From sequence record NC_048002.1: a stretch of 39,883 nucleotides of DNA; one strand, given 5' to 3'. The translations under genes and the position numbers were made by a program. Below, piece by piece: positions 566 to 39,406 of this stretch. Origin of the DNA: Escherichia phage SRT7. The notes beneath the pieces were generated by a model. That model had not been told where the DNA came from. It saw nothing but the letters and a program-made list of their open reading frames with translations, and searched no databases. Within the stretch, counting starts at the first letter, position 1, and every line of letters begins with the position of its first letter.

Positions 566-587
566 TCTCCCTATAGTGTGGGTTAAT
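566..587 (-). promoter_or_regulatory. Phage RNAP promoter (phiOR-like), downstream of terminase gene
   Basis: Minus strand reads ATTAACCCACACTATAGGGAGA; one of 12 near-identical copies. Confidence 0.85.
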
Positions 588-690
588 GCAAACCTATTGA
601 TTCATAAGGAATTTCTAAAAGAGGCACATCCTTGTGTCCTCTCATAGTTATTCACTTAAAGTGCATAAGCACTCAATGTGACCTAAGGTA

Positions 691-2442
691 TTACCATCCC
701 ATGATGTTACCACTAGACAAGTCGTCATCCTCATAGTAGACATCAAGTGCACCAAAGGTCATCTGGTGGATGTGCTTGTTGCTCACTAAGGACGACTCCA
801 TGTGGTGCTCAAGGAACTCCAGCACCTTCTCTTCTTCAACCTTAACGCTGTCCAACTTCATGGACTCACGAAGGAACTCTACGCCTAACGCTAAGGCATC
901 CAGCCTATCGTCATGCTTAAGGGCTCCCTTAACGCGCGTGATGCGTGTGAACTGGTGGAAGAGACTGTAGGACACATCGGGTTTACCATCCTTGTCACGA
1001 GCTGTCTGATAGTCCTCACGGATGACCTCATCACGAATGACAAGACGGTGAGTCGTTAAGACTGGCTCTAAGGTATCGCAGATGCGCAACTCCTTCATCC
1101 CTCGTGCACGAATCTCCTCAAGTGTAGCAGGATGATACTGTAGCAGGATTGGCTGGAATACCTTACCGAACATGCCGTCACCGAAGTTGGACTCAAAGAC
1201 CACTGTCTGTACTTTCCACTTCTTGGCAATCTTGGCTAACTCAATCAACGTCTTCTCTTCGTACCCGTCCTTGCCGCCAGCTTCCATCAGATAGATGTAG
1301 CCATTCAGCGCATACAGGACGCAATAACCCGTCTCATCCTTGCCTCGACCACTAGGGTCAATCACAAGAATCTTCTGGGTATACTCAGAGGAACGGTTAG
1401 AGCACTCATGGTAACTGTGCAGGGAATCGCCCTTAAGTCCCACGTTAGGAAGCTCGTCATTCACGTTCTGACGGTTCGGTAGCCATTGGTAATGCATTGG
1501 TGCCTTCTCGATGTCCAAGGCCGCTACGATGCAATCACGCATACGTAATGGGTACTTCTCGGCATCACTGAGGTTGGGGTTAAGCATGAACTGCAACGTG
1601 TAACCAGCCTTCCCATATTCAAGCTCACGCTCACGAAGGTCATCGTGGTCGAATCGCACAGGGTCGGTAGGTTGACCAGCAAGCATCTCAGGGTACTCGT
1701 CGTACTCCTCACGTAGCATCGGGGCCAGTCGCTGAGAGTAATACAAATCCTCTTCCTTGTTGCGTGGGTATTGAGCTGGCCAGATTGTGGTCGTGTAACC
1801 ACGGTTATCTTCCAGTTCCTTATAGAGAGTCATTTCGGTCTGTGGTGTACCCAAGTAGATAACCCGAGAGCTATCCAAAGGCTTCAGCAAGGCCGCAAAC
1901 TCCTGTACCAGAGTCCATAGCTTCTCACGAGCACCAGCAGTAGCACTGTTGCCGGGAACCTCTACGTCATCTGCTAGGATGATATCAGCACGACTACCAG
2001 TCAACTGACCAGTAATACCTACTGACTTCACGCTCGGACTATGGTCAGGCATAGCTGGTCCAACGTCAAAGCTAATCACACTGTCACGCTGTCCCGGACG
2101 AGGCTTAAGCTCATGAAGGAAAGGCAACAAGTCAATGATGTTCTTAATGAAGATACTGTTAGCATCCGCACGTTCCTTGGAGGCCGACACAATGAGGACC
2201 TTTAGTTGCGGGTTACGCCATAGCGTCCAGACCACAAAGGCACACAAGATGAACGACTTCCCGATACCTCGGAATGCCTGAAGGATGAACTTCTTGTTAC
2301 GCTCGTCAGCTACTACCTTCGCCATGTCAATCTGACACTTGGTTGGCTTGGGTAGATTCAGTGCCCTCCATAATACAAACAGGAAGGCAACGAAGTCTGA
2401 TTTGAGCTGTTGGATAATCTTATCGTTATCGTAGTCGCTCAC
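691..2442 (-). CDS. gp19: Terminase large subunit (T7 gp19-like)
   Basis: 583 aa; strong similarity to recalled T7 gp19; GTG start at 2442 preceded by AAGGAGA; last gene before right end. Confidence 0.93.
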
Positions 2443-2890
2443 TGTTGTTCTCCTTATGGTTAGCTATCAGTTTACGAATAGTGTCTTGAAGGGCTTTCTC
2501 CTTCAGGTCAGCAGCCTCTGTTATTTTGACAAGGCTTCTAACAGTTGACTCGTGTAGTTCGACGGGGATAACAGACTCGCATCGACCGTCACTGCTTCTG
2601 GCTGAGCCGGGGGCGCATACTTTGGCGTACAGCCGCCTGTTATCAGACTTAAGGTCAGCAATAACCCTATCAGTGCTGCCTTCCAGCGCGGAGTAGTCTT
2701 CTTGGTACTTAGCGCTAATCTTGTTGACCGCATCCTGAGTAGCTTGTTTAGCTTCTGTCTTCGTAACGTACTCATTGTGTATCTCCTCCTTCCATTTGGT
2801 CTCCACCTTGGTGCTACCAACGTTATACCCTAAGGCAAACACGCCGATTAACACTAGGATTGGGAGAGCCTTCTTTAAAATCTCCAGCAT
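2426..2890 (-). CDS. gp18.5: i-spanin (Rz-like, T7 gp18.5-like)
   Basis: 154 aa; N-terminal TM segment; similarity to T7 gp18.5; overlaps gene 19 start. Confidence 0.85.
2521..2775 (-). CDS. gp18.7: o-spanin (Rz1-like, T7 gp18.7-like), embedded in gp18.5 in another frame
   Basis: Internal ATG at 2775 gives MSTLRRQ..., 84 aa; AGGAGGA RBS; hydrophobic signal then Cys (LITGGC); matches T7 gp18.7 N-terminus. Confidence 0.7.
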   Translation of the reverse strand: MSTLRRQKLNKLLRMRSTRLALSTKKTTPRWKAALIGLLLTLSLITGGCTPKYAPPAQPEAVTVDASLLSPSNYTSQLLEALSK

Positions 2891-2944
2891 AATGCCTCCC
2901 GTCTTTTATCAGATTTCACGTAGGAACGCCTACAGTTGTGTTAA

Positions 2945-2992
2945 GCATTCATAAAGGCCACCACATGTAGTGACCTTGAGTATGCCTATCAG
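2945..2992 (-). promoter_or_regulatory. RNase III-type processing hairpin (R18.5-like), overlaps gene 18 stop
   Basis: Minus RNA CTGATAGG...AAGGTCAC-loop-GTGGCCTT; 8-bp upper stem; same motif family at 25527, 36021, 37847. Confidence 0.5.
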
Positions 2993-3261
2993 TTGAGCGT
3001 TGGTCGCTCGTCTTCGGTTAGACCATCGGAGCCTACCTGAGCGTTATAGTCGCCAAGTGCTCCAGCCAGTCCACCAAGGATGTTTGCATCAGGTTTCAGC
3101 TTAGCAATCTGGAACTTATGGCGCTCCAGCAGTTTACCTATGGCGTTATAGAGCTGAGGGGTTCTACGCTCAGGGTTCTGTAGGTCCATCAGCATCTGCT
3201 GTGCCATGTTGGTGTCCAGCATCTCAAGGAGAGACATAAGGGTTGCATCAGGTTTACTCAT
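2989..3261 (-). CDS. gp18: Terminase small subunit (T7 gp18-like)
   Basis: 90 aa; LLEMLDT...PQLYNAIGKLLERHKFQI matches T7 gp18. Confidence 0.9.
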   Translation of the reverse strand: MSKPDATLMSLLEMLDTNMAQQMLMDLQNPERRTPQLYNAIGKLLERHKFQIAKLKPDANILGGLAGALGDYNAQVGSDGLTEDERPTLN

Positions 3262-3460
3262 TGCGACCTCCTAATTCCATCTTCTTGTACTCAAGCCACT
3301 TGTCGAACATCTTGGAGCCAATCTGCACGAGGGTGTAGACGATAGCCGCCACGTAGAACCATTCGTTCAACGATAGGCCCCAAAAGGTACGCAAGGCGAC
3401 ATCTCCAGCAGCAGCCGCAGGAATGGCAATCGTACCATTGTTAAAATCCAATGACATCAT
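3254..3460 (-). CDS. gp17.5: Holin (T7 gp17.5-like, class II)
   Basis: 68 aa; MMSLDFNN...GLSLNEWFYVAAIVYTLVQIG matches T7 gp17.5. Confidence 0.88.
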   Translation of the reverse strand: MMSLDFNNGTIAIPAAAAGDVALRTFWGLSLNEWFYVAAIVYTLVQIGSKMFDKWLEYKKMELGGRNE

Positions 3461-3523
3461 GTGTCACCTCCTTATTGTGTGGGACTATCCGTGTCCCTGC
3501 TCGTGTTCCTTACGTTTGATTGA

Positions 3524-5399: not shown

Positions 5400-5421
5400 T
5401 CTCCCTATAGTGTGGGTTAAT
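5400..5421 (-). promoter_or_regulatory. Phage RNAP promoter (phi17-like)
   Basis: tctccctatagtgtgggttaat on plus strand, i.e. consensus promoter on minus strand. Confidence 0.88.
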
Positions 5422-5423: not shown

Positions 5424-8400
5424 TTACCAGCGCTCTGAACGCTTAGGTCGCTCGGTTGTGTAGATGTGCTCTTCGAAAGCACCCAGAAGTAGTCTCTGAG
5501 TAATCGGGTCGTTCGGGAGAACTTCCTTCATATTCTGATAGACACCTGTAGTGAACTCCGTGGAGTCGCGAGGGCCATTGGCACCTCCGAGGTTCCAGAG
5601 GTTCTGACCGAGAGACACCGTAGAGCCAACGTAGTTAGCCACAGGGAACTGTTGACCAATAGCACCCATCAGCTCAGCCGTACCGGAACGACCAGAGGAA
5701 GCCTTGTTAGGGTCTCGCTGTGGTGCATCCTTAGGACTGATAGTGGTACGCATGTACTGACTAGGGGTTAGACCTAATGGGCCAAGTAGCATATCGGCTA
5801 CACCTAATGGCGCACCAGTGATAGAGCTTCGGGAGGCCGCAGCGTAGGTAACCATCTCAGGCGATAAAGCCTTGAAGAGATAGGCCTCACGTTGGTTCTC
5901 AGGAAGACCAGCAGCTTTCATGTGTGACTGCATCACATAGAACGAACCAGCCAACATTCCAGAGATACCAGTAGACAACGCAGCATCCATAGCTCGACCA
6001 TCTCGAGTCGCCTGATAGTAAGTACGTAGGGTCTTACCATTGAGGGACTTAATGACGAACGTCTTAAACTGGAGAGCAGCACCCACAATCGGGCCCAACT
6101 GTTTCACGTTCTGAGCGTTCAGCTTGGAAGGACGAAGCATGGTCTCATCGGCTACCTTGTCAGCCATACGCCACAAGTCCATAGCCCGAGGGTCAAGGCT
6201 CATTGCGTGTTGGTCTGGGAAGCTCCACTTACCGTTAGCGTCCACCTTGGCGTGGTCTTTGAGGAACTGAATGATACCCTTGGACTGCTCAGGCGTGATG
6301 CTGGCAGACTTCAGGAAGTTCTCATTGAGCCACTTGGATGACTTACCAGTCGCAGCGTGTTCAATCAGGTTCCCAATGAGACCCTGACGTGCAGCGCTAA
6401 GCAGGTAGTTCGTGGTGCCTTGTAGCAGCTTACTCATAGGCCACGCAGCGGCAATCTCCTGAGTCCCGAACTTAAGGGAACCCAGAGCGTTTGCACCGAA
6501 TGAACCCATACCAGAGTTGTCACGAAGAGACTGAATGAGGTCTGCCCGTTGAGGGCGAATCATATTGTCCACTTCACGACCCATCAAGCCATACTCCAGC
6601 TTCTGAAGGTCAGTCCCGGAGACAGCCTTAGTGGAACGCATCATGTCACGAACCACAGGGATACCGTGGAACAGAGCACGAACGTTACCCTTGGCAATCA
6701 TACCACCAATCTCCGTCAGGTTCAGAAGACCCATGTAGGCGTTCTTAGCGACAAAGCTCAGGTCTTTAAGAACACCCATAGCCATGTCCACAGCGCCGTT
6801 AGGGTCACGACGAGCACGACCAGTGAGTAACTTCACGGTATCTTCGAGGGCGTTAGCGTCCTGCTTCAGCTTACCGGAAGGGTCACTCTTGGCTCGCTCA
6901 CGGATAGCGGTAATCTTATCCAGCAAGTCCTGAGTAGTCTGACCCGTAGAGTGAATCGCAATGTCACCATTGGTTCGACGGGCATAATTACGCAGCAGCT
7001 TGTTAGCGTCAAAGCTACGAAGGTCATTCAGGGAGAACATCGTACCATCTGGCAGTTGAGACTTGAAGCCCATGCTAAACCCATGACGGCTCTCAAGGAA
7101 GTTGTTCTTCCCGAGGTTCATAGAGTTCGACGCAGAGGCGATATCGTCCAGTGCAAGGTTGGTAGTAAACTCACCATTTACAATACCGAATGCCTTATCA
7201 TTGGCCCACTTCTCAACCATCTCAGGTGTAACTGCGGCTGGGCTATCCAGACCGTTCTTAGCGGCTACCATCTCGTCTACCACAGACTTCGTGTTAGGGT
7301 TGGACGCATAGTCAGCCAAGAAGTGGCGCTGCATGGCACCTTGAGCATCCTCAATGGAGTTCCCAAAGACATTACGGAATGCAGCCACCTTCTCAGGTAC
7401 ATAAGCCACCGGGAAGTATTTGCCGCTAAGTTTCGTCTTGTTCATCACAGGGATTGCTTTAGGGTTACCGAACATCGCAGGGTTAGACATAGCGTCTTCC
7501 TTGCTGGTGGTGAACCGGAAGATTTCATCACGCAGCTTGGATTCACCCTTGGTCAACTTAGAGACGCCAATACCATCTTCCTGTGCTTCCACTGCACGAC
7601 GCACCACGGTCTCACGTGCCAGAGCATCCCCACGGTTAGCGCCCATAGTCCACTCAGGGTCTTTGATTGCATCACGTGTGAACTGCTCAATAGCCGTTAG
7701 GTCGGACGTATCGGTGTAGTGCAGACGCTCAGCCACGTCAGAGGCAACCGTACCGGACTTACCGGAGCCGCCTTTAACGTAACCTGTAGTGGAACGCAGG
7801 AGGTCATAGGCAACACCACGGACTTCATCGTCGGCAGAGCGAGACAGGTGCAGGGAGATATCGGTCATGGAACCCATACGTACACCCATAGAGCCCTTAG
7901 TCACCTCAGGGTCTACCGAAGCAAACTGAGAGGCACTATTAGGGTTCAGAGGGTTACTGGTTGACAGCACTTGACCATCCGGCAGGACTACTTCGCCACT
8001 GTCGAGGGTTGCATATTGAGAGCCATTCGGAGAGGTCTTAAAGTCCAGACCCTCGGTACTCACAGCAGAGTTATCCGGTAGGCCACGCATGGCTGCATCA
8101 CGAGACTCAGCGCGAGCTGTTGCCGCAAGGACGCTCTCAGCTTCACGAGGGTTGGCACGATGTAACACACCAGTCAGGCCAGCACCGAACAGTAAGCCAC
8201 CACCAGCCGCCATCATGTAGTCTGCATGTCCACCACCAACACCCACACGTAAACCTTCAGAGGCTACGTTCAGAGCACCAGCTTGAGTACCTACAGTCAC
8301 CATACGACGACCTAGGGAGATACCCTTGGAAGCCGCACCAGCAATCGGGATGTAGCTCACAGGGTCTACAGCAGCACCAGCGAGAGCACCCACGAGGTGG

Positions 8401-9386
8401 GCACCCATACCAGCATCGGCTACAGAGTCCTGACGGTCCTGACGTTCCTTAGCCAGCTTAATCATCTCATCGAGAGTCTCAGCGTTGGACCCAAGGACAG
8501 ACTGAGCGTACTCAGCACGAAGACCACTCTCACGAATCTTTTGGATATCATCAGGAGTGAACGTGTAGCTGTTCCACTTGGATGGTGTAATAGTTGCAGA
8601 CCAAACGTCATACCCGTTGTCGCCAAGGGCTGCATCAGCCATCGTAGCTAGAGCGGAGTTCTGTACCTCAACCTTAGCCACGTCACCAGTCTTATAGAAT
8701 AACCCTTTGTCAGCTCCCTGAGGCTTATAGTTCTCCTCTGGCTGGTCGTTCTGTACTGCCCACGTATTGGCAGCAGTACGTTCGTTCAATTGGTCATACT
8801 TAAGGTTAGACGTGTCCATGTTGACGCTTGCAGTCTCTGGACCGGGAGCCCCACGAGTTACCTTAGAGGCTGGGGCTTCGACCTCATAGATTCCCTTTGC
8901 GAAGTCACCGAACTTCTCAATGGCTTCTGAGCGCAGGGACTTAGCGGAACCTACCAGTTTACGGATGTACAGGCGACCTTCATCACCAATGCTACCGTAG
9001 TCCTGCTTATCGTAGGCTTCAATCTGAGGCATACCAGTCGGGCCTTCCCCAACGTTATACATCAGGGCGGCTCGCAGCTCATCACCATTAGACTTCTTAA
9101 CGAAGCCAGCAAGCAACTTAGCAGCAGCCGGGATTGCTTTCTCAGGGTTGTAACGGTCATCAGCCGGGTTGTCCTCTTTGAAGACATTGAGTCCCATAGC
9201 CCGACCAGTACCAGCAGTCATCTGCATGATACCCTTAGGTCCTGTAGGTGACTTAGCGTTAGCGTTAAAGCTGGACTCATTGAACGTTAAGTGTCGAAGG
9301 AGGTCATAAGAGACCCCGTTGGCATCGGCAGCTTGACGAATCAGTCCATCGTATTGGTTAGGGATAGTTTTGTCATATTTAGCCAT
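5424..9386 (-). CDS. gp16: Internal virion protein D (T7 gp16-like) with N-terminal lytic transglycosylase domain
   Basis: 1320 aa; N-terminus MAKYDK...GLIRQAADANGVSYDLLR matches T7 gp16. Confidence 0.92.
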   Translation of the reverse strand: MAKYDKTIPNQYDGLIRQAADANGVSYDLLRHLTFNESSFNANAKSPTGPKGIMQMTAGTGRAMGLNVFKEDNPADDRYNPEKAIPAAAKLLAGFVKKSNGDELRAALMYNVGEGPTGMPQIEAYDKQDYGSIGDEGRLYIRKLVGSAKSLRSEAIEKFGDFAKGIYEVEAPASKVTRGAPGPETASVNMDTSNLKYDQLNERTAANTWAVQNDQPEENYKPQGADKGLFYKTGDVAKVEVQNSALATMADAALGDNGYDVWSATITPSKWNSYTFTPDDIQKIRESGLRAEYAQSVLGSNAETLDEMIKLAKERQDRQDSVADAGMGAHLVGALAGAAVDPVSYIPIAGAASKGISLGRRMVTVGTQAGALNVASEGLRVGVGGGHADYMMAAGGGLLFGAGLTGVLHRANPREAESVLAATARAESRDAAMRGLPDNSAVSTEGLDFKTSPNGSQYATLDSGEVVLPDGQVLSTSNPLNPNSASQFASVDPEVTKGSMGVRMGSMTDISLHLSRSADDEVRGVAYDLLRSTTGYVKGGSGKSGTVASDVAERLHYTDTSDLTAIEQFTRDAIKDPEWTMGANRGDALARETVVRRAVEAQEDGIGVSKLTKGESKLRDEIFRFTTSKEDAMSNPAMFGNPKAIPVMNKTKLSGKYFPVAYVPEKVAAFRNVFGNSIEDAQGAMQRHFLADYASNPNTKSVVDEMVAAKNGLDSPAAVTPEMVEKWANDKAFGIVNGEFTTNLALDDIASASNSMNLGKNNFLESRHGFSMGFKSQLPDGTMFSLNDLRSFDANKLLRNYARRTNGDIAIHSTGQTTQDLLDKITAIRERAKSDPSGKLKQDANALEDTVKLLTGRARRDPNGAVDMAMGVLKDLSFVAKNAYMGLLNLTEIGGMIAKGNVRALFHGIPVVRDMMRSTKAVSGTDLQKLEYGLMGREVDNMIRPQRADLIQSLRDNSGMGSFGANALGSLKFGTQEIAAAWPMSKLLQGTTNYLLSAARQGLIGNLIEHAATGKSSKWLNENFLKSASITPEQSKGIIQFLKDHAKVDANGKWSFPDQHAMSLDPRAMDLWRMADKVADETMLRPSKLNAQNVKQLGPIVGAALQFKTFVIKSLNGKTLRTYYQATRDGRAMDAALSTGISGMLAGSFYVMQSHMKAAGLPENQREAYLFKALSPEMVTYAAASRSSITGAPLGVADMLLGPLGLTPSQYMRTTISPKDAPQRDPNKASSGRSGTAELMGAIGQQFPVANYVGSTVSLGQNLWNLGGANGPRDSTEFTTGVYQNMKEVLPNDPITQRLLLGAFEEHIYTTERPKRSERW

Positions 9387-9404: not shown

Positions 9405-11822
9405 TTAGTCAATTAGACGGTTAATCTTCGCTTTGGTGTCCTTAGGTGCCTTGGCGGTTTTCCGCTTAGGCTTTGGTGCGATAGGCTCACCGGACTGGAG
9501 GTCCTTACGAATCTCACCACCGTAGATGCTGTTAGGCACCTGAGCTTTCTTAGCGCGTACACGTTTAGAGCCAGCTTCACGAGCAGACTTAGCCGCCGTG
9601 ATAGGTGCTCGCTTATTGGCGTCCTTCAGGGCCTGTTCAAGTTTAGCCTTGTCCTTCGCCTGTTGCTCAGCAGCACGTTTAGCGTTCGCATCGTCTTCGG
9701 CCTTCTGTGCCTCAATCATATCAGCGCGAGAGATAATCTTAGGCATCTGACCAGCAGCACCAGTGATAAGCACGATATCTTGGTCAGCGTTGTAGTTCAC
9801 ATTAACGTAGGCGCTTGAGATTTTACCCTCGGTAGCCACTTGGTTAATGAACCCTTCCATGTGACGCTTGCCGTTGGTTGCATCAAACCCGTTGCCATTC
9901 TCAAGGAATGACGTAGGGATAGCACCCTGTAGGCGACCAGCAGTGTTCCCAGAGCCACCGGCGCTAAACGTGGTAGTGAACCCCTCAGCCATCCTATCGG
10001 CGGCTTTAAGGGCTTTCCGTGTGTCTCCGTGGTCGTGCATCTCAGCGAGGTACACTTGGTAAGCTGCACCAGCCTCATCGTGGCTCATGTAGTTCAGGTG
10101 CGGATACTGACCGGAGTTCGTCAGGAAATTCTCATAGGAGGCAGCACCTTTATCAGGCTTCTTACTCAGAGAGTTTCGCTCACGTTCGCCTTTAACGAAC
10201 TGCTCGTTAGTCAGGCCGTACTTCTTCATGGTGTACATCTGGGCAATCAGCTCGCCCTGCTCAGGGAATAACTTAACGAACCCCGCAGGGTCAGCCTCGT
10301 AGTACGCCTTGAGTTGGTCCAGCTCGGTCCCTTTAAGTTCAGCACCACGAAGGATAGCACCAGACAAATCGTTGGTTGCAGCTTCAACGCTTGGAGCCAT
10401 AACCTTCTGAGGCCACCCGGTCTTCCCGGAGACACTCGCCAGCTTCATCCACTGTTGAGCCTTTTGCTCAGGGGACAGGTTCGGGTCATTCATGATATCA
10501 TTACGATACTTGTTGAATGCGTTCGTGAAGTCTTCCTCTTTGTACTCACCAGTGTTGTCGTCGGTAGGCATCGTTGAGGTACTCAAAGGAACCGCAAAGT
10601 CACCATTCATCGCTCGCGTAATGTTTCCGTACACGTTTGTCTCACGGTTGAACTTCTGGTTGGCCTTATCATTCTCAGTTGTCTTCTTAGCCGTCTCACG
10701 CGCAAGTCGGTCCTTAAGGGACTGCTCAACACGGTCGATACGGTCTAGGGCTGCTGTTTGTGCGCTACCCGGCTGCATCTTGTTGTAGAAGTCCCGCTGC
10801 TTACGCAACTCCTCCAGACCCAGATTGATGTCGGTAGAGCGCTCAATACCGCCCATAGTTGACTCAAAGATACTCGCACGTTCACGGTCCTGTGTCATTA
10901 AGGATTGGTTAGCGTTAGCGAGATATGAATCCCACGACTCCTTACCTACGTAGTCCTTAATCTTCACACGGCTACCGTATAGTTCAACTTCCTGTTCGCC
11001 AAGAGCTACCAGAGCGGCACCACCTTGCGCATGATTGGAAGTGTTCTTTACGGCATCTAGTAATACAGACTCGCGCTGCTTATCATTCAATAGGGCACCC
11101 TGACGGGTCTGCTCCAGATAGCCAGTCACCGAGGTCGCATATTGTTCACCGTTCGTCGCATTAAGACCGTGGAGTGAACCACTTAAAGTCTGCTTAGCGT
11201 TGACGATTGCAGCATTCTCGTTGAACTGAGCCTTATGTGAATCCCACACGTCATTCGTTGAGATTTCACGTTGCTGAATGTTGGACGCTAAGCCGAACTG
11301 GAAGTGCTCGTCGTTGGTGTCGATACCGTACAGCTTGGCATCCTGCTCAGCGAAGAGCTTGCGCAACTCGGCTTTGTCCTTGTTCATCTGGGCTTCATCT
11401 TCCTGACTGAACGACCCATACTTACCGTCTTTGATTCTCTGCTGAATCTCAGCGTCTGCCCGGAACGAAGCGTTAGACCCCATGTTCTCACGCATGAACT
11501 GCATGGCGAACTTGTTGTCTTGGTAACGCAAGGTCCCATCGTTGAACGCCTTACGATATTCATCAGGATTCTCACGAGCGAACTTGGTCAGCCATTCGGC
11601 CTGTTGCTTGCCAGCTTTCTCCTGTTCGTCCTCGTAGCGCCCAAAGGCAGCACCAGCCGACTTCCCGAAGTTCTCAAGGGAATCCAGAAGACCACTCTTG
11701 ACGTTGTTCGGTGTGCCAACCTGTGCAGCCTGATAGTTAGCCCCAGCGAGGGAGCCACCACGCAGACGCGAGGCAGCAGCTTGAGGATTACTCTGGAGAG
11801 CTGTTTGAATACGACTAGCCAT
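9405..11822 (-). CDS. gp15: Internal virion protein C (T7 gp15-like)
   Basis: 805 aa; position between gp14 and gp16; size and composition. Confidence 0.85.
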   Translation of the reverse strand: MASRIQTALQSNPQAAASRLRGGSLAGANYQAAQVGTPNNVKSGLLDSLENFGKSAGAAFGRYEDEQEKAGKQQAEWLTKFARENPDEYRKAFNDGTLRYQDNKFAMQFMRENMGSNASFRADAEIQQRIKDGKYGSFSQEDEAQMNKDKAELRKLFAEQDAKLYGIDTNDEHFQFGLASNIQQREISTNDVWDSHKAQFNENAAIVNAKQTLSGSLHGLNATNGEQYATSVTGYLEQTRQGALLNDKQRESVLLDAVKNTSNHAQGGAALVALGEQEVELYGSRVKIKDYVGKESWDSYLANANQSLMTQDRERASIFESTMGGIERSTDINLGLEELRKQRDFYNKMQPGSAQTAALDRIDRVEQSLKDRLARETAKKTTENDKANQKFNRETNVYGNITRAMNGDFAVPLSTSTMPTDDNTGEYKEEDFTNAFNKYRNDIMNDPNLSPEQKAQQWMKLASVSGKTGWPQKVMAPSVEAATNDLSGAILRGAELKGTELDQLKAYYEADPAGFVKLFPEQGELIAQMYTMKKYGLTNEQFVKGERERNSLSKKPDKGAASYENFLTNSGQYPHLNYMSHDEAGAAYQVYLAEMHDHGDTRKALKAADRMAEGFTTTFSAGGSGNTAGRLQGAIPTSFLENGNGFDATNGKRHMEGFINQVATEGKISSAYVNVNYNADQDIVLITGAAGQMPKIISRADMIEAQKAEDDANAKRAAEQQAKDKAKLEQALKDANKRAPITAAKSAREAGSKRVRAKKAQVPNSIYGGEIRKDLQSGEPIAPKPKRKTAKAPKDTKAKINRLID

Positions 11823-12781: not shown

Positions 12782-12807
12782 AATGTAATCCTCTTATGAA
12801 TTAGGTC

Positions 12808-12829
12808 TCTCCCTATAGTGTGGGTTAAT
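12808..12829 (-). promoter_or_regulatory. Phage RNAP promoter (phi13-like)
   Basis: Consensus 22-mer on minus strand. Confidence 0.88.
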
Positions 12830-12853
12830 GCACACCACAAGGAGAGCCTATTG

Positions 12854-15874: not shown

Positions 15875-15895
15875 AAAGCACCTCCTGTTGTCAAG

Positions 15896-15938
15896 CAAAA
15901 AACCCCTCAAGCATCCCGAAGGACACCCAAGGGGTTTC
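15896..15938 (-). terminator. T-phi-like terminator for phage RNAP, downstream of capsid gene
   Basis: Minus RNA AACCCCUUGGGUGUCCUUCGGGAUGCUUGAGGGGUUUUUUG: GU-rich hairpin plus U6; same position as T7 T-phi. Confidence 0.85.
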
Positions 15939-15940
15939 TG

Positions 15941-17241: not shown

Positions 17242-17263
17242 TCTCCCTATAGTGTGGGTTAAT
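17242..17263 (-). promoter_or_regulatory. Phage RNAP promoter (phi10-like)
   Basis: Consensus 22-mer; ~110-nt leader ending AGAAGGAGATTCAACATG. Confidence 0.9.
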
Positions 17264-18271: not shown

Positions 18272-18293
18272 TCTCCCTATAGTGTGGGTTAAT
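18272..18293 (-). promoter_or_regulatory. Phage RNAP promoter (phi9-like)
   Basis: Consensus 22-mer on minus strand. Confidence 0.88.
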
Positions 18294-20716: not shown

Positions 20717-20803
20717 AAAGTCCTCCTTAAGTTATTGGTAATACATAATCATAAACTCTTAAATAGAACTTTAAGTAGCTTACAATAGGGTCTTTAAGTG
20801 TAC

Positions 20804-20825
20804 TCTCCCTATAGTGTGGGTTAAT
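20804..20825 (-). promoter_or_regulatory. Phage RNAP promoter (phi6.5-like)
   Basis: Consensus 22-mer on minus strand. Confidence 0.88.
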
Positions 20826-20846
20826 ACACAAAGACCCTATAATCAG

Positions 20847-28109: not shown

Positions 28110-28559
28110 TTACTTAGCCGTCACCAGCTCGTTTGTGTCAAGCCAACGCTTCACGTCAAAACTCGGACAAGCCTTAGCAGCAAAGTCACGGTGGCCCTTA
28201 ATGGCTACACCGGGGAACTTAACTTTCAGTTCGTCCAGAAGTTTACGCAGGGTAGCCATCTGCTGAGGCGTAAAGTTAGCCTGTGGCTGCATCTTATCGT
28301 CAACACCACCAACCAAGCAGATGCCTACGGATGAGTCGTTCTGACCTACCGTATGTGCACCAACCTGATTAACGTCACGACCAGTCTCGATAGTACCATC
28401 GCGTCGAATGATGAAGTGATAACCAACATCCAGAAAGCCACGCTCTTTATGCCACTGACGGATTTCACGCAGACCAATGTTCATGGTGGGCTTAGTTGCC
28501 GCACAGTGGACAATCAGGGTCTTGGTAGCTGCTCGTTCCTTGAACTTTACGTTAGCCAC
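28110..28559 (-). CDS. gp3.5: Lysozyme / N-acetylmuramoyl-L-alanine amidase (T7 gp3.5-like)
   Basis: GTG start at 28559 (MANVKFKERA..., 149 aa) with AAGGTGG RBS; HCAATKP...REIRQWHKE..DVGYHFII matches T7 gp3.5. Confidence 0.92.
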   Translation of the reverse strand: MANVKFKERAATKTLIVHCAATKPTMNIGLREIRQWHKERGFLDVGYHFIIRRDGTIETGRDVNQVGAHTVGQNDSSVGICLVGGVDDKMQPQANFTPQQMATLRKLLDELKVKFPGVAIKGHRDFAAKACPSFDVKRWLDTNELVTAK

Positions 28560-29944: not shown

Positions 29945-30018
29945 AATGAATCTCCTTTAAGTTAACGTTGGGTTGGGACAGGGAGCATAAAGCAGAGCGC
30001 CACTCGAATGGTGTGCTG

Positions 30019-30040
30019 TGTCCCTATAGTGTGGGTTATT
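30019..30040 (-). promoter_or_regulatory. Phage RNAP promoter (phi2.5-like; variant -17..-13 and GGGACA)
   Basis: Minus TAATAACCCACACTATAGGGACA; overlaps 3' end of gene 2. Confidence 0.75.
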
Positions 30041-30221
30041 AGACGGCTGGACGAACTCGGAGCACCTCAAAGCCTACCGGAGTATACTTAAAGGTTGCCA
30101 AATCGTGTGCCTCTTCGAGAGACCCTGCGAATACAGGCACCTCCAGCTCGCCATCAACGTAACTGAGCGTCACGAAGTACTTCTTATCGGTTGGGACGAG
30201 GCGTCCCTTCTCAATGGTCAT
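30039..30221 (-). CDS. gp2: Host RNA polymerase inhibitor (T7 gp2-like)
   Basis: Start at ATG 30221 (MTIEKGR..., 60 aa) with AAGGAGAAAGG RBS; C-terminus VGFEVLRVRP resembles T7 gp2. Confidence 0.75.
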   Translation of the reverse strand: MTIEKGRLVPTDKKYFVTLSYVDGELEVPVFAGSLEEAHDLATFKYTPVGFEVLRVRPAV

Positions 30222-31063: not shown

Positions 31064-31150
31064 TTATGGTGGCGTTAAGTCATCGTCATTGTCAGTAAGT
31101 GACAGAATGAACAACATTAAGAATGCAATAGATAACACGAAATTTATCAT
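31064..31150 (-). CDS. Small hydrophobic peptide (28 aa) at gene 1.5 position, speculative
   Basis: MINFVLSIAFLMLFILSLTDNDDDLTPP; ATG 7 nt after GGGAGA start of phi1.5 transcript. Confidence 0.4.
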   Translation of the reverse strand: MINFVLSIAFLMLFILSLTDNDDDLTPP

Positions 31151-31157
31151 AACGTAG

Positions 31158-31179: not shown

Positions 31180-31182
31180 AGG

Positions 31183-31296
31183 CTAGTCATCTAGTGGGCA
31201 GTAGTCGGACAGTTTGTCTTTAGCCCACTTGTGGCCTACCCAAAGTCCAAATATGAATACCAGCACGAGGCTGAGCGAGATTTCTAAAGGTGTCAT
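31183..31296 (-). CDS. Small membrane-type protein (37 aa) at gene 1.4 position, speculative
   Basis: MTPLEISLSLVLVFIFGLWVGHKWAKDKLSDYCPLDD; AAGGATT RBS. Confidence 0.45.
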   Translation of the reverse strand: MTPLEISLSLVLVFIFGLWVGHKWAKDKLSDYCPLDD

Positions 31297-31311: not shown

Positions 31312-31357
31312 TTGTAGAAACGACAAAAGGCCCACCCGTTAAGGTAGACCTTTTAGC
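31312..31357 (-). terminator. Hairpin plus U-tract after ligase gene (TE-like early terminator candidate)
   Basis: Minus RNA AAAAGGUCUACC-UUAACG-GGUGGGCCUUUU then GUCGUUUCU; 12-bp stem with GU pairs; stem resembles the RNase III hairpin family. Confidence 0.6.
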
Positions 31358-32882: not shown

Positions 32883-32904
32883 TCTCCCTATAGTGTGGGT
32901 TAAT
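32883..32904 (-). promoter_or_regulatory. Phage RNAP promoter (phi1.1B-like)
   Basis: Consensus 22-mer; transcript 5' end can form GGGAGA-loop-UCUCCC hairpin. Confidence 0.88.
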
Positions 32905-33281: not shown

Positions 33282-33303
33282 GTTCCCTATAGTGTGGGTT
33301 AAT
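33282..33303 (-). promoter_or_regulatory. Phage RNAP promoter (phi1.1A-like; GGGAAC variant)
   Basis: Minus ATTAACCCACACTATAGGGAAC. Confidence 0.8.
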
Positions 33304-33348: not shown

Positions 33349-35997
33349 TTAGGCGAACGCAAAGTCAGACTTTAAGATTTCCTGAAGATTCAGAGACCCT
33401 TTAGCTGGAATCGCTGGCATCTTCTCAAGCTGACTTTCGTGAAGCTGGTCGTAGAACTGGTCGTAGAACTCTTGGATTACGTCATGCTCCTCATAGGTCT
33501 CCACAAGGGTCTCACGTACTGCGTTAAACAGGTTGCGAGCGTCTGCGGCTACCGTACCGAAGCTATCGTGAATCAGAGCGAACGACTTAATGCCATACTT
33601 ATTGTGACCGTGCACTACCGTCTGACGCAGGTGGCTACCATCCATGCTGTGCACGAAGTTAGGCGCAATCCCGGACTCCTGTTTGTGTGCGTCAATCCCG
33701 CTATCCTTTGTTGTGTTGATGGTCAGAGCCATGCGAATCTTACCAAGGAAAATCAGGTCGAGACGCTTCTGGACTGGCTTCTTGTACTCCTGCCACACAG
33801 GGAACCCATCAGGAGTAACCCAATGTACAGCACAGCGGTTGCGCAGGATTGTCCCGTCCTTATCCTTCACCTCAGCGGCTAACAGCTTAGCAGCACTCTG
33901 GAGCCACTTCATGGCATCAACCGCAGCCACCACAGTGACACTTACAGCTTCCCAGATGAGCTTCGCCATGTAACCTGCGGCTTGGTTCGGCTGGGTAAAC
34001 ATGAGGCCCTTCCCGTTGTCAATAGCTGGACGGATGGTGTCCTCCAGTACTTGGTCACGGAAGCCATACTCTTTGGAACCATACGCCAGCGTCATGACAG
34101 AACGTTTAGTGACCCCACGGTTGACCCCAAAGGCCAGCCACTGACCAGCCAGCTCGCGAGTACCCAGCTTAGGCTTCTCGGTAATCTCACCAGTGGTCTT
34201 ATTGGTAATCACTTCGATTTCGTTGTCGGTCCCGCCGATAGCATCAGCCTGAAGACGGATGTTAACCTTGTCGGAGACGATACGATAGATATCCTGCACG
34301 GTCTCGCTCGGTAGCAGGTTAACTGCACGACCACCAACCTCATCACGCAGCATAGCAGAGAAGTGCTGAATCCCTGAGCATGAGCCATCGAAGGCCAGCG
34401 GCAGAGAGGACACGTAGGACTTACCGTGACGGAACGCTCCAGCGTACTCAAAGCAGAACGCGAGGAAACAGAACGGTGAATCTTGCTCGGCCCACCAAAG
34501 GTTCTCTAAAGGAGCCTCAGCGCAAGCCATAATATCTGCGTGGTGACTCTCAATGAAGTCGATGCGCTCCGGGAATGGGACCTTATCAACACCTGCGGTA
34601 TTCGCACCGTGAATCTTCAGCCAGTACATTCCGTCCTCACCGATAGGCTTGCCAGTGGCGAACGTCAGGAGGCCCTTTGTCATATCGTTGCCCTGTGGGT
34701 TAAACATCGGGCAAGCATACACGCGACCGCGCCAGTCTAGGTTGTACGGGAACCAGATTGCCTTAAACTGTGCAAACTTATTGGCCTGACCGAGAGCGAA
34801 CTCGAGGGACAGGCGCTTAGACACGCGAGCCTTATCCTGACGATACACGGCTGCGGCTGCTTTCTTCCACGACTTGAGAGACGCTTCATTCGTGTCGATG
34901 TCCTCAGGTTTCTCCGGGAGTTCTTTACGCTCCAGCGCTGGGATATCCTCCACCGGACAGTTCTTCCAGTTGACCACCTGATTGACGACCGCCAGAACCT
35001 TCGTGTTAATCTTCCACGCTGTATTCTGAGCGATGTTTACCGCTTCATATACCTCAGGCATAGACACATCGTTGTAGCGCATGAGAGCCTTACGAGAGCC
35101 TACACGAATCAACTGAATCGGCTTACGACCAGCCGCCCAATAGCCGCCACCTTCGATGGACGTCCAAGGTTTCGGAGGGACTACACAAGGTTGATACATT
35201 GGTGCGATTGCAGCCAGTGCCCCAGCGCGTTTACTGATAGCTTCTACCCATTCGTCAGCCAGAAAGACAAACTGACCGTCTGACTTAACGTTCCCGGCGT
35301 TCATACGCTCGACCTCAACGAGACCTGTAGACTCAATAAGCAATTCAAGCATCTTGATACCTGTGTGCTCCAGCTCCTCGGTGGTCCAGTGCTCCCACGT
35401 GGATTTAAGCTCTTTGCGCTCAATCATCTGTTTCTCTACGACCTGCATGTAAGCCTTTTTGTAGAGCAAGCCGTTGCGCTTGTTGAGCCCGTCCTCTACG
35501 TACTTCTTAAAGAACTTGGCTTCCTCATCACGGATACGACCGAAGCGTAACTCATCTTCGATTGCACGACCTATGGCGAACGCTACGTTCTGCATTGATG
35601 CCAGTTCCTGCTTGGCTACCTGTGCCAGTGTCTGCTTGACCACGATTGCCGCACAGTTGTCGGCTTTGATTGCCGCTGTGGTCTTTGTAGCTACGTGCTT
35701 ACGTCCTTTCTTCACGCGCATCTCTTCGTGCCACTCAGTGAAACGAGCAGACAACCGAGGGATTAACGTCTGGACTACACCTTTAGCCGCTGCGTTATCT
35801 GCAAACTCGCCAGCCTCAATCTGACGCTGTAACTGCTTATGGAAACGCTTCTCACCTTCCGTGTATGCCTCGTGCTCTAACTCAAGTTGAACAGCCGCCA
35901 GATGTTCGCCGTAATGGTCTGCCAATACGTTGAACGGTTCGATATCGTGTTTGATATCAGAAAAGTCATTCACTGCCGGATTAATTACGTTGCTCAT
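33349..35997 (-). CDS. gp1: Single-subunit DNA-dependent RNA polymerase (T7 gp1-like)
   Basis: 882 aa; extensive identity to T7 RNAP including catalytic HDSFGT and C-terminal FAFA. Confidence 0.97.
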   Translation of the reverse strand: MSNVINPAVNDFSDIKHDIEPFNVLADHYGEHLAAVQLELEHEAYTEGEKRFHKQLQRQIEAGEFADNAAAKGVVQTLIPRLSARFTEWHEEMRVKKGRKHVATKTTAAIKADNCAAIVVKQTLAQVAKQELASMQNVAFAIGRAIEDELRFGRIRDEEAKFFKKYVEDGLNKRNGLLYKKAYMQVVEKQMIERKELKSTWEHWTTEELEHTGIKMLELLIESTGLVEVERMNAGNVKSDGQFVFLADEWVEAISKRAGALAAIAPMYQPCVVPPKPWTSIEGGGYWAAGRKPIQLIRVGSRKALMRYNDVSMPEVYEAVNIAQNTAWKINTKVLAVVNQVVNWKNCPVEDIPALERKELPEKPEDIDTNEASLKSWKKAAAAVYRQDKARVSKRLSLEFALGQANKFAQFKAIWFPYNLDWRGRVYACPMFNPQGNDMTKGLLTFATGKPIGEDGMYWLKIHGANTAGVDKVPFPERIDFIESHHADIMACAEAPLENLWWAEQDSPFCFLAFCFEYAGAFRHGKSYVSSLPLAFDGSCSGIQHFSAMLRDEVGGRAVNLLPSETVQDIYRIVSDKVNIRLQADAIGGTDNEIEVITNKTTGEITEKPKLGTRELAGQWLAFGVNRGVTKRSVMTLAYGSKEYGFRDQVLEDTIRPAIDNGKGLMFTQPNQAAGYMAKLIWEAVSVTVVAAVDAMKWLQSAAKLLAAEVKDKDGTILRNRCAVHWVTPDGFPVWQEYKKPVQKRLDLIFLGKIRMALTINTTKDSGIDAHKQESGIAPNFVHSMDGSHLRQTVVHGHNKYGIKSFALIHDSFGTVAADARNLFNAVRETLVETYEEHDVIQEFYDQFYDQLHESQLEKMPAIPAKGSLNLQEILKSDFAFA

Positions 35998-36020
35998 TAT
36001 TGCCTCGCTTGTTTAAGAAT

Positions 36021-36072
36021 CTTCACTCTCAGAGGCCACCGCTTGGCGACCTCTTGAAGTGTAGACTATCAG
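36021..36072 (-). promoter_or_regulatory. RNase III-type processing hairpin (R1-like) between kinase and RNAP genes
   Basis: Minus RNA CTGATAG...GAGGUCGCC-AAGC-GGUGGCCUC with lower stem CACU/AGUG; overlaps kinase stop. Confidence 0.5.
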
Positions 36073-37223
36073 CCCATAAACATTGCGTCAAGACGCTTAT
36101 CAATATCAAGCGGTCTGCCCATATTGATTTGCTCTACCATTCGGTTGTGGCGCTCCACGTTCTTCTCATGGATGACCCGGATGCCGTTCCTGTGGTGAAT
36201 CTTAAGACCCTCAGGGATTGCCCACTTCACACCGCGACCACAGATGTACTTAGCGTCCGGCTTAATTCCTACCACCAGTTCCCACGCTCGGTCATCATCC
36301 TTGCGAACCATATTGGCTTTCGCTTGGCGTTCTTCACGCTCGGCTCTAATCTTAGCCAGTTGAATCTTACGGCGGCGATGTGCCTTTCGGTTCTCCAGCT
36401 TGTTCAACTTACGGAGGTGACGTTGTTGCCACTTCTCAATAGCTTCCTCAAGTTTCATCGCTTGGATTTCCTCAAGTAGCGCCTCAAAGTCTACCCGGAA
36501 GTCATCCGGCTCACCGAGACCGTTTGTGTAGCTCACCGGGTCAGTGATGACGATGTTGTCGTTATGGTCCAGCATCACGTTACCTTCATGCATGTCGAAG
36601 CCAGCCACCCCATAGAAGAACTCGCGGATGTGCGCTGCGGTTCCCTGTAGACCCTGAGTGACCTCATCGTATGCCTCGCAGAAGTCCCATGCGTCACTGT
36701 CGCGATTCAGAATCTGAGTCTTCACGATGTTGTACTGGTCGAGGACTTCAGGTGACTTTGCACTGTATGGCTTAAGGTGGTCCAGAACGACCGTGTAACA
36801 GGCATCATGTCGTGCAATCGCATGGATTACTGGCAACCCTTGTAGACCCGGATTAGCTCGGCAGAATGCAGCGTACGCAGCGCCTGAGTCTTCTTTCTTA
36901 AAGCCCACCTTAATGACGCGACCCGGCAGACTTACGTGGCTGAATACTGCACTGAAGAATCCATTCCCTAGGAACGTATAGCCCAGCTCGCGAGCCATCG
37001 CCACCAGCGAACCCCACCAGTCCTGTGAGTTAACGAACTCGGTATCGTCCACGCCACAGCCGCAATCAGTCTCGTAGTTTACAAGGTCAGCAAGAATACC
37101 CACGAGACCCGGTTGGCGTTCATCGAGTCGGTCGATAGGTAGCGCTTTCAGTGCTTTCATTCGGTACTCAAGTGCTTGATACACGGTAGGGACCACGTGA
37201 TGTGCTGCGTTCATTGGGTTCAT
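36069..37223 (-). CDS. gp0.7: Serine/threonine protein kinase, host shut-off (T7 gp0.7-like)
   Basis: 384 aa; NGHFSA/NGFFSA, RVIKVGFKKEDSGAAY, FDMH.GN, ITDPVS and C-terminal DKQLDAMLMG-type blocks as in T7 gp0.7. Confidence 0.9.
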   Translation of the reverse strand: MNPMNAAHHVVPTVYQALEYRMKALKALPIDRLDERQPGLVGILADLVNYETDCGCGVDDTEFVNSQDWWGSLVAMARELGYTFLGNGFFSAVFSHVSLPGRVIKVGFKKEDSGAAYAAFCRANPGLQGLPVIHAIARHDACYTVVLDHLKPYSAKSPEVLDQYNIVKTQILNRDSDAWDFCEAYDEVTQGLQGTAAHIREFFYGVAGFDMHEGNVMLDHNDNIVITDPVSYTNGLGEPDDFRVDFEALLEEIQAMKLEEAIEKWQQRHLRKLNKLENRKAHRRRKIQLAKIRAEREERQAKANMVRKDDDRAWELVVGIKPDAKYICGRGVKWAIPEGLKIHHRNGIRVIHEKNVERHNRMVEQINMGRPLDIDKRLDAMFMG

Positions 37224-37846: not shown

Positions 37847-37886
37847 CTTTGAGCGCCCACCTGTGACGCTCTCGTTAGCCTATCAG
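37847..37886 (-). promoter_or_regulatory. RNase III-type processing hairpin (R0.5-like)
   Basis: Minus RNA CTGATAGG...GAGCGUCAC..GGGCGCUC; same CTGATAGG stop-containing motif as the other three copies. Confidence 0.45.
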
Positions 37887-38154: not shown

Positions 38155-38312
38155 TTGAATAGCCCCTCACGTTTATCATAATCGCGCTTGTTAGCGTCAT
38201 GCCATGCCTTAAGTTTAGCCATAGTTTCATCATGTGAGCGGTCGCCCAGTTGGTACAAGAGGCGATACATGACCATGATACTTTGAGAGATACCATAAGT
38301 TGGCTTGTTCAT
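38151..38312 (-). CDS. Small early protein (53 aa)
   Basis: ATG directly after SAMase stop (TAAATG) with GGGAGG RBS 8 nt upstream. Confidence 0.6.
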   Translation of the reverse strand: MNKPTYGISQSIMVMYRLLYQLGDRSHDETMAKLKAWHDANKRDYDKREGLFK

Positions 38313-38765
38313 TTAGATTACCTCCCAGATACGCCCTTCAGCGTCCATTGTGTAGCACTCACCCTCAGGTGCATCCACTTGCTGGAAGGAGCCATTCAGT
38401 CGAGTCGCCTTGTACCCCTCCAGACCCTTACAGAACAGTAGACCAGCGGTGTGAGTCTGTGACTTATAAACCATCACACAGTCTTGCTCAAAGTCATTAC
38501 AGGCCAAACGTGCCACGTTGATAGCTTGCGCCTTGTTGTCACACAATACACGATAGGTGCGCTCGGTGGTAGCGACCTCCTGACCCTCTTCACGATAGCA
38601 GCCAGTCAGACCAGTACACTCAAGGACACCGTAATATTCCGGCTCAGCCTGTAAGAGCGCCTTAAGGTCCAGTTGACGTGCCATGTTGACCATATCGGAC
38701 AGGTTAGCACGTGCAGCGGAGACCAGTACATAGAATTTGTTAGCTGGTTCGTTCGTGTAAATCAT
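38313..38765 (-). CDS. gp0.3: S-adenosyl-L-methionine hydrolase/lyase (T3 gp0.3-like SAMase, anti-restriction)
   Basis: 150 aa; EPAN.FYVLVSA...DLTGCYRE...KAQA.NVARLACN..EQDC..VYKSQTHTAGL matches recalled T3 SAMase; first gene after early promoters. Confidence 0.85.
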   Translation of the reverse strand: MIYTNEPANKFYVLVSAARANLSDMVNMARQLDLKALLQAEPEYYGVLECTGLTGCYREEGQEVATTERTYRVLCDNKAQAINVARLACNDFEQDCVMVYKSQTHTAGLLFCKGLEGYKATRLNGSFQQVDAPEGECYTMDAEGRIWEVI

Positions 38766-38990
38766 GATGTTTCTCCATAGGTTAGATTAGTGATTATCAT
38801 AATGGGACACTGGACGCTCATCTTGAGCCCGTCTCGCGGTAGTCTGTTACAGTGCCCATGAGTTAATCGCTATTGTCGCTATCGTTCTCATGAGTGTTGA
38901 TTATCCAAATTGTTAAAGAACATTCGGTTCATCCAGAGGGAATCACCTAGACCCTTTCAGTGTCGGTCATCACGTTGCTTGTTGGACACT

Positions 38991-39019
38991 AAGTTACTAC
39001 GCTAAGTACACATTGTCAA
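38991..39019 (-). promoter_or_regulatory. Candidate host sigma70 early promoter (A3-like)
   Basis: Minus TTGACA-17nt-TAACTT; near-duplicate of the promoter at 39153-39181. Confidence 0.5.
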
Positions 39020-39066
39020 GCTATTTGTTCACTTAGCGTAGCACCTTAAGTATCGTGCTAATCGTT

Positions 39067-39091
39067 CACCTCAGGTATTCGCGCTGAGGCA
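39067..39091 (-). promoter_or_regulatory. Stable hairpin in early leader (possible processing site)
   Basis: Plus cacctcag-gtattcgcg-ctgaggca; 8-bp stem on minus RNA including two GU pairs; followed by CATGTAG..TATCAG resembling the RNase III motif family. Confidence 0.35.
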
Positions 39092-39152
39092 CCGCATAGA
39101 CCATGTAGTTTATCAGTTCGGTCTCGCTGTACTGCTGTGTTGCTTGCTATCT

Positions 39153-39181
39153 AAGTTACTGCGTTTCGTTCTGCATGTCAA
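39153..39181 (-). promoter_or_regulatory. Candidate host sigma70 early promoter (A2-like)
   Basis: Minus TTGACA-17nt-TAACTT. Confidence 0.5.
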
Positions 39182-39305
39182 CACTTTATTTCGTTAGGTG
39201 GCTCTGCGTAGTTCCTTAGGCGTTCTATCGTGTGGACTCGAACCCGTCAACCTATCAGACCACTTAGAGACGCTATCGCAGCGTGTCGTCGTGTTGATGG
39301 ATGCT

Positions 39306-39334
39306 ATTAAGCCATAGACCGATGAGGATGTCAA
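39306..39334 (-). promoter_or_regulatory. Candidate host sigma70 early promoter (A1-like)
   Basis: Minus TTGACA-17nt-CTTAAT; spacing to A2/A3 candidates (~150 bp) mirrors T7 A1-A3. Confidence 0.4.
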
Positions 39335-39384
39335 CACTTAATGATAAACTTTATGAAATACTTTAAGTATGGGCTTATAGGTTA

Positions 39385-39406
39385 GCTCCTTATAGTGTGG
39401 GTTAAT
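39385..39406 (-). promoter_or_regulatory. Phage RNAP promoter (phiOL-like; AAGGAGC initiating variant)
   Basis: Minus ATTAACCCACACTATAAGGAGC, ~300 bp inside the left terminal repeat. Confidence 0.7.

Follow-up and report, generated by a model that had tools for sequence, protein, structure and literature searches.

Twelve putative promoters for the phage-encoded RNA polymerase of Escherichia phage SRT7, a coliphage of the genus Foetvirus

In the single-subunit RNA polymerase (RNAP) of phage T7, the base-specific promoter contacts are made by residues R746, N748, R756, and Q758, as described in 2025 in Nucleic Acids Research (NAR) (PMC11880802). It was shown by experiment in that study that T7 RNAP carrying N748D and Q758A, i.e., with "DRA" at positions 748/756/758, is cognate and orthogonal for promoters with ACCCA at −12 to −8 (PMC11880802). 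The N4-loop graft of Temme et al. (PMC3458549) is listed there as cognate for the same pentamer (PMC11880802), an assignment that we took from Table 2 of the 2025 study. A study from 2026 reported that an RNAP of the ICP3 type, "No. 1575", transcribes in vitro from TAATTAACCCACACTATAGGGAGA, while T7 RNAP does not (PMC13029058). The output of No. 1575 was 8.3% with the consensus, 11.6% with +5 G>C, 5.3% with +5 G>T, and 5.9% with +3 G>A, and a change at −13 reduced it to 2% (PMC13029058). Here, we analyzed the 39,883-bp sequence of Escherichia phage SRT7 (NC_048002.1; this whole stretch is called the window below), in which a short element containing ACCCA is repeated twelve times on one strand. 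The elements are nothing unusual for a T7-like phage and belong to the already characterized DRA–ACCCA class, and their identification as promoters is secure. Judged from the sequence comparisons below, they very probably form the full promoter set of the single-subunit RNAP encoded by gene 1 of this Foetvirus. Promoters of this class have been described and validated before, and the novelty lies in finding them in a genus of coliphages with an RNAP only 63% identical to the Vibrio phage enzymes. In the literature, no description of the promoters of Foetvirus, SRT7, or the related Escherichia phage P1723 was found, and the only paper containing the core sequence concerns the ICP3-type RNAP.

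The exact 17-mer ATTAACCCACACTATAG is present in ten copies, all on the minus strand, while none is expected from shuffled sequences. When up to three mismatches were allowed, twelve sites were found against 0.11 expected by chance. A preliminary description of the window had reported twelve identical cores on the minus strand, and all twelve are found where it had placed them, its coordinates (566, 5400, and so on) being the low ends of a 22-bp element spanning −16 to +6, consistently 5 nt below the 17-mer. The cores are identical at ten sites; the element at 30019 carries −15 T>A, which had been missed (30024-30040, AATAACCCACACTATAG), and that at 39385 carries +1 G>A (39390-39406, ATTAACCCACACTATAA, ...CACTATAA). 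Over −16 to +6, the consensus is ATTAACCCACACTATAGGGAGA, to which eight sites have no mismatch and four have two mismatches each. On both strands, no other site comes closer than six mismatches, so the set is sharply bounded. The 22-mer scan for more diverged promoters, such as equivalents of T7 phi1.3, 3.8, 4c, and 4.7 or T3 phi11, gave nothing below six mismatches, and a scan of the genome with the 14-mer core gave extra matches only with three mismatches, about as many as expected by chance.

The window is a complete linear T7-like genome (Foetvirus, Studiervirinae), because an exact 175-bp direct repeat lies at both ends, and it is given in reverse orientation relative to the conventional T7 map, as all long open reading frames (ORFs) are on the minus strand. 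The closest record is that of P1723 (Autographiviridae; Studiervirinae; Foetvirus SRT7) with 97% identity over 97-98% of the length, and the remaining phage records reach about 75% identity in conserved genes only. The P1723 record has no annotated promoters or regulatory features. Its coding sequence (CDS) coordinates were carried over to obtain the gene map of the window. All twelve sites are intergenic and co-directional with the next gene, which starts 32-111 nt downstream, except at phiOL (625 nt) and phiOR (no gene downstream). Their order is that of the T3-type map, and they are syntenic with the annotated T7 and T3 promoters. From the genetic left end to the right end, the sites are:

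39385-39406, minus strand: phiOL promoter, ATTAACCCACACTATAAGGAGC; variant AGGAGC (+1 G>A, +6 A>C); after the left repeat
33282-33303, minus strand: phi1.05 promoter; variant GGGAAC (+5 G>A, +6 A>C); 45 nt past the gene 1 stop; the downstream gene matches Pfam Phage_T3_1_05
32883-32904, minus strand: phi1.1 promoter; full 22-bp consensus despite lying in the class II region; 4 nt past the Phage_T3_1_05 gene; unchanged in P1723
31158-31179, minus strand: phi1.5 promoter; full consensus; the first past the ligase gene and the TE-like terminator
30019-30040, minus strand: phi2.5 promoter; variant AATAACC...GGGACA (−15 T>A, +5 G>C); at the gene 2/2.5 junction, with a 2-nt overlap with the gene 2 stop codon
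26165-26186, minus strand: phi4.3 promoter; variant GGGAAC (+5 G>A, +6 A>C); after gene 4
20804-20825, minus strand: phi6.5 promoter; consensus; inside a strong hairpin at about 20785-20840 (z = −4.5)
18272-18293, minus strand: phi9 promoter; consensus; preceded by TGC
17242-17263, minus strand: phi10 promoter; consensus; TGC directly in front; major capsid gene 111 nt downstream
12808-12829, minus strand: phi13 promoter; consensus; inside a strong hairpin at about 12802-12850 (z = −6.0)
5400-5421, minus strand: phi17 promoter; consensus; duplicated in P1723
566-587, minus strand: phiOR promoter; consensus; 103 nt past gene 19 and before the right terminal repeat

The elements have the features of T7-like RNAP promoters, i.e., a length of about 23 bp, a core of the CACTATAG type at −7 to +1, a G-rich start, and repetition on one strand. 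Eight of them share the initiating region GGGAGA (566, 5400, 12808, 17242, 18272, 20804, 31158, and 32883) and the others have GGGAAC (33282 and 26165), GGGACA (30019), or AGGAGC (39385), in agreement with the preliminary description. The copy at 33282 had been labeled phi1.1A-like, which is not correct: its position is that of phi1.05 in T3 and K11, and the Phage_T3_1_05 gene separates it from phi1.1. Of the eight variant bases, seven fall on +1, +5, or +6, outside the recognition region, and positions −14 to −1 are invariant in all twelve sites.

The same twelve sites are present in P1723, together with a second copy of phi17. Compared with P1723, none of the 176 nt in the eight consensus cores is changed (0/22 at phi1.5), whereas the 60-nt flanks have diverged by 6.4% overall and by about 27% around phi1.5. 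In the four variant cores, 3 of 88 nt are changed, while about 7.7 changes would be expected from the divergence of the flanks. In P1723, phi2.5 reads GGGAAC instead of the GGGACA of the window and phi4.3 has −4 T>C; the GGGAAC of phi1.05 and phi4.3 is retained. All twelve cores are under constraint, which is tighter in the consensus copies.

A cognate T7-type RNAP gene is present in the same genome as the elements. The gene and its specificity loop are located as follows:

33349-35997, minus strand: gene 1, single-subunit RNA polymerase of 882 aa, with the Pfam domains RNA_pol and RPOL_N
33718-33771, minus strand: specificity loop QKRLDLIFLGKIRMALTI, residues 743-760, located by loop alignment; wider context KRLDLIFLGKIRMALTIN

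The protein can be aligned along its entire length to T7 RNAP (PDB entries 1CEZ/1QLN), and it is 77% identical to the RNAP of Pektosvirus MA6, 71% to those of T7 and T3, 66% to that of K11, and 63% to that of Vibrio phage N4. In the loop alignment, its residues R745, D747, R755, and A757 correspond to T7 R746, N748, R756, and Q758, which gives D/R/A at T7 positions 748/756/758. ACCCA is found at −12 to −8 in all twelve sites, which read ATTA-ACCCA-CACTATA (A at −15 in phi2.5). The source genome of RNAP No. 1575 is 99.96% identical to Vibrio phage JSF35, and its loop carries the motif RMALTIN as in the window. When the loop motif at T7 positions 756-759 is set against base −8, T3 and Pektosvirus MA6 have RLQP with T, and the window and Vibrio N4 have RMAL with A. 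Pektosvirus (Pectobacterium phage MA6) is the reported sister genus of Foetvirus (PMC7693777), and because it keeps RLQP together with promoters that have T at −8, residue 758 co-varies with base −8. The earlier designation of the repeats as phage-RNAP promoters is therefore strongly supported by the encoded T7-type RNAP, the synteny with T3 and T7, the match between D/R/A and ACCCA, and the activity of the same consensus in vitro with a Vibrio-phage enzyme. Some points weigh against it. The experiments in support were made with an enzyme of 63% identity and with an engineered T7 RNAP. The N-terminal strand of the loop is T3-like and not N4-like, so the fine specificity could differ. Finally, position −17 is merely a pyrimidine in the window (12 of 12 sites), while N4 and T3 have A there.

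The loop of the window is a hybrid. Its N-terminal strand, QKRLDLIFLG, resembles those of T3 and MA6, and its C-terminal strand, RMALTI, resembles that of N4. Over Q744-I761, 12 of 18 residues are shared with T3 and 12 of 18 with N4, whose loop is QKRIDCVILGTHRMALTI; the whole beta-hairpin is therefore not near-identical to the "N4 subfamily" of Temme et al. Only one of 50,697 phage records, that of P1723, has the same loop. A recent transfer of the loop from a Vibrio phage was rejected, since the R-M-A-L codons differ synonymously (GCT CTG versus GCG TTA) and the flanking residues are T3/MA6-like. The present sequences fit convergence and ancient exchange equally. One possible history, which we put forward tentatively and with the odds somewhat against it, is that Foetvirus re-specified its RNAP independently of the Vibrio phages. 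An ancestor of the T3/Pektosvirus type with RLQP and ACCCT would have changed to RMAL and ACCCA, with T>A at −8 in all twelve promoters, and would so have converged on the N4/ICP3 consensus. If true, this would be a natural, coordinated switch of promoter specificity, and it predicts full cross-recognition between the E. coli phage RNAP and the Vibrio phage promoters.

The bases upstream of the core may hold a further feature. Five of the six late promoters (566, 12808, 17242, 18272, and 20804) have TGC (four sites) or TGT (one site) at −19 to −17, and none of the six early and middle promoters does. In simulations, an in-register 3-mer common to at least four of six random flanks was seen in about 0.2% of the trials. 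We did not accept TGC/TGT as an established class III recognition element, as the upstream bases of phi6.5 and phi13 belong to RNase III-type stems. As a weaker addition to the re-specification described above, TGC at −19 to −17 may be an extra strength element that defines a real top tier.

To relate the promoters to a transcription program, the following features were considered:

39709-39883, strand-neutral: copy of the 175-bp direct terminal repeat at the genetic left end, identical to 1-175
39306-39334 and 39222-39250, minus strand: candidate host sigma-70 early promoters, TTGACA-17-CTTAAT and TTGACG-17-TAGAAC, respectively; just downstream of phiOL, at the position of A1-A3 in T7 and K11
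31324-31355, minus strand: TE-like intrinsic terminator, a hairpin with U-run directly after the ligase gene (z = −5.8), at the TE map position of T7 and T3
28110-28556, minus strand: gene 3.5 homologue (Pfam Amidase_2; T7 lysozyme family), a candidate RNAP regulator
about 15895-15940, minus strand: Tphi-like terminator between genes 10 and 11, a hairpin with U-run (z = −3.9) at the Tphi map position of T7 and T3; its 3' half resembles T7 Tphi (CTTGAGGGGTTTTTTG)

The candidate sigma-70 sites fall below the default thresholds of a standard promoter scan, and an Rfam scan of the whole window gave no family match. The two terminators, after gene 10 and after the ligase gene, would partition the transcripts. 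In the program that we propose, host RNAP would transcribe the early region through gene 1 to the TE-like terminator. The specificity loop of gp1 would then read ACCCA via D747, R755, and A757, and the C at −7 via R745, after which the TATA at −4 to −1 would melt and the RNA would be predicted to start at the following G (A at phiOL). All twelve promoters should be bound, because the recognition and melting regions (−14 to −1) are invariant. The differences at phiOL, phi1.05, phi2.5, and phi4.3 most likely tune initiation and promoter clearance and would not act as an on/off switch between classes. The left promoters are expected to act first, as the genome would enter the cell left end first. 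Timing would be set mainly by map position, by the TE-like and Tphi-like terminators, and possibly by the gp3.5 homologue, as in T7. Tphi would boost the gene 9-10 messages, gp3.5 may bias late transcription toward the promoters that clear best, and read-through transcripts are probably processed at the phi6.5 and phi13 hairpins.

The preliminary description had also proposed a two-tier hierarchy that mirrors the split between class II and class III promoters in T7. The distribution on which it was based was borne out: the four variants are all confined to the leftmost 35% of the genetic map, and the six promoters from phi6.5 through phiOR all have no mismatch, as in T7. The mirror is partial, since phi1.1 and phi1.5 are perfect consensus in the class II region, so not all middle-gene promoters deviate. 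If the tiers were discrete, the variants would be weak, lysozyme-sensitive class II promoters of middle genes and the consensus copies strong class III promoters of late genes. We consider this rather unlikely, although several observations speak for it besides the distribution. In T7, 11 left promoters carry 2-7 mismatches and those from phi6.5 through phiOR carry none; in Vibrio N4, nine left promoters have 1-3 mismatches and the late ones mostly none. The drift relative to P1723 is found in the variant cores and not in the consensus cores, and a gp3.5 amidase homologue is present, lysozyme being treated in the modeling literature on T7 as a factor that moves RNAP away from class II and toward class III promoters (PMC6938266). 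On the other hand, phi1.1 and phi1.5 lie upstream of middle genes and are kept perfect in P1723, and the positional association alone is weak (hypergeometric p = 0.03). The variant bases occupy +5/+6 (and also +1 and −15) and leave the binding region untouched. With No. 1575, the +5 G>C promoter was above the consensus and other single changes in the initially transcribed bases had effects of at most 1.6-fold. Furthermore, T3, the closest map analogue, is not clean, as its phi6.5 and phi9 carry 2-3 mismatches.

Because +5 G>C raised the output of the related RNAP No. 1575, "variant" need not mean "weaker". T7 RNAP prefers G at +1, and the +1 A of phiOL is for this reason the only variant that is likely to be strongly weakening. 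A +1 A in phiOL (CACTATAAGGAG) is common to the window (39385-39406), P1723 (312-323), T7 (398-409), and Vibrio N4 (172-183) despite their differing promoter specificities, and T3 and K11 keep G at this position. The shared A points to a special feature of the left-end promoter that has been conserved.

It is also doubtful that the four variants are the result of near-neutral drift at the weakly constrained positions +5, +6, and −15, without regulatory meaning and with only the +1 A of phiOL functionally distinct. The variation affects only positions at which changes had small effects in the assays of No. 1575, phi2.5 and phi4.3 differ between the window and P1723, and two middle-region promoters are consensus, all of which would agree with drift. 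However, the gradient from variant left to consensus right promoters recurs in the independent lineages of T7 and Vibrio N4, phi1.05 and phi4.3 share a GGGAAC that P1723 has retained, and the variant cores change less than their flanks. We therefore read the class II/III analogy as a tendency and not as a dichotomy, in which graded tuning of initiation and clearance would be laid over a program that depends mainly on map order and terminators.

It is highly improbable that the repeats are not promoters and represent dispersed elements of another kind (parts of terminators, signals for recombination or packaging, or sites of RNA processing). The location of the phi6.5 and phi13 copies within strong hairpins that resemble RNase III sites would speak for this. 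Against it, the other copies tested show no significant structure, Rfam finds nothing, the sequence is an experimentally active promoter of a related polymerase, and the sites are syntenic with annotated promoters of T3 and T7, where promoters within RNase III sites are annotated too.

The window differs from P1723 in a mosaic fashion, and the differences cluster at modules bounded by promoters. The regions flanking phi1.5 and phi2.5 (about 31180-31240, 31098-31157, and 29959-30100) have diverged by about 27%, with the promoter cores intact. The duplicated phi17 copies of P1723 lie at 34489-34510 and 34815-34836 with identical flanks, where the window has a single copy, and the N-terminus of P1723 gp17 is split and duplicated (CDSs 34551-34793 and 34877-36754). 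Two P1723 CDSs have no match in the window, namely a small hypothetical one before gene 1.6 (8398-8583) and an HNH endonuclease after gene 2.5 (10475-10948).

When IMG/VR and metagenomes were scanned for the exact promoter, only N4/ICP3-type contigs and one orphan site were found, and no further relatives of Foetvirus. The orphan is an exact 22-mer with N4-type upstream bases (TTTTAATTAACCCACACTATAGGGAGAG) at 493-514 on the minus strand of the metagenome contig OLHG01009217.1. This 3.2-kb contig is not of phage type; it contains a 552-aa ORF with, as judged by eye, candidate integrase-like features, and it ends in a tRNA-Gly match. The orphan copy could be due to chance, or the contig could be an integrative element carrying a T7-like phage promoter.

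The analysis provides a complete, so far unannotated promoter map for the genus Foetvirus and a second natural lineage for the DRA–ACCCA class, which is already used in synthetic biology as an orthogonal pair. The hybrid loop is a natural check on the residue–base code, combining A at 758 with A at −8 and D at 748 with CC at −11/−10, and the RNAP of the window could serve as another orthogonal enzyme. For phage biology the results are confirmatory, indicating a transcription program like that of T3 and T7 with a softer gradient between early and late promoters.

Among the described systems, the engineered DRA T7 RNAP (PMC11880802) and the T7(N4) graft (PMC3458549) have the same three contact residues and the same pentamer as the window, and they are orthogonal to T7, K11-like, and other pairs. 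Unlike the window, they are not natural enzymes or genomes, but use the T7 scaffold and the T7 promoter sequence outside −12 to −8. Pektosvirus MA6 has the closest RNAP (77%) with D at 748, and its promoters share AATTAACCC at −17 to −9 with the window. In contrast to the window, however, they read AATTAACCCTCACTATTGGGAGAC, with T at −8 and T at −1, and the loop has RLQP.

T7 shares with the window the 23-bp architecture, CACTATAG at −7 to +1, and GGGAGA downstream, as well as the consensus promoters from phi6.5 to phiOR, the +1 A of phiOL, the terminators TE and Tphi, and the lysozyme gene. The T7 enzyme (N/R/Q) reads CGACT, while that of the window (D/R/A) reads ACCCA. Of the 17 T7 promoters, the 11 located left of gene 6.5 (phiOL and ten class II promoters) all deviate, with changes at 2-7 positions that include −2 and the binding region. 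Among the 12 of the window, four of the six left ones deviate, almost only at +1/+5/+6. The promoter map of T3 (Teetrevirus) matches that of the window, including phi1.05 and gene 1.05. Its annotated RNase III sites R6.5 and R13 contain phi6.5 and phi13, and the copies in the window are likewise inside hairpins. T3 also has ATTAACCC at −16 to −9 and D at 748, as the window does, but it has T at −8, A at −2, and Q758 (RLQP), whereas the window has A at −8, T at −2, and A757 (RMAL). In addition, T3 has extra promoters phi1.3, 3.8, and 11, and the phi17 position is occupied by a non-functional T7-type sequence, while phi17 of the window looks functional.

The most similar promoters are those of the Vibrio phages N4/ICP3/JSF (Chatterjeevirus), whose −16 to +6 consensus is identical to that of the window. 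Vibrio N4 has D/R/A at T7 positions 748/756/758 and the RMALTIN motif, and its variants lie to the left and its consensus copies to the right, all as in the window. Its middle-region promoter at 7594-7615 is the same 22-mer as phi2.5 of the window, AATAACCCACACTATAGGGACA, and the GGGACA start of phi2.5 is also that of "1575-3", the best promoter in vitro (PMC13029058). The two systems differ in the number of sites with up to three mismatches (16 in Vibrio N4 and 12 in the window) and in the upstream bases, as TA is conserved at −18/−17 in Vibrio N4, while in the window −17 is conserved only as a pyrimidine and late copies carry TGC/TGT at −19 to −17. The SSB gene of Vibrio N4 is relocated, its gene order and host differ from those of the window, and the two RNAPs are 63% identical overall.

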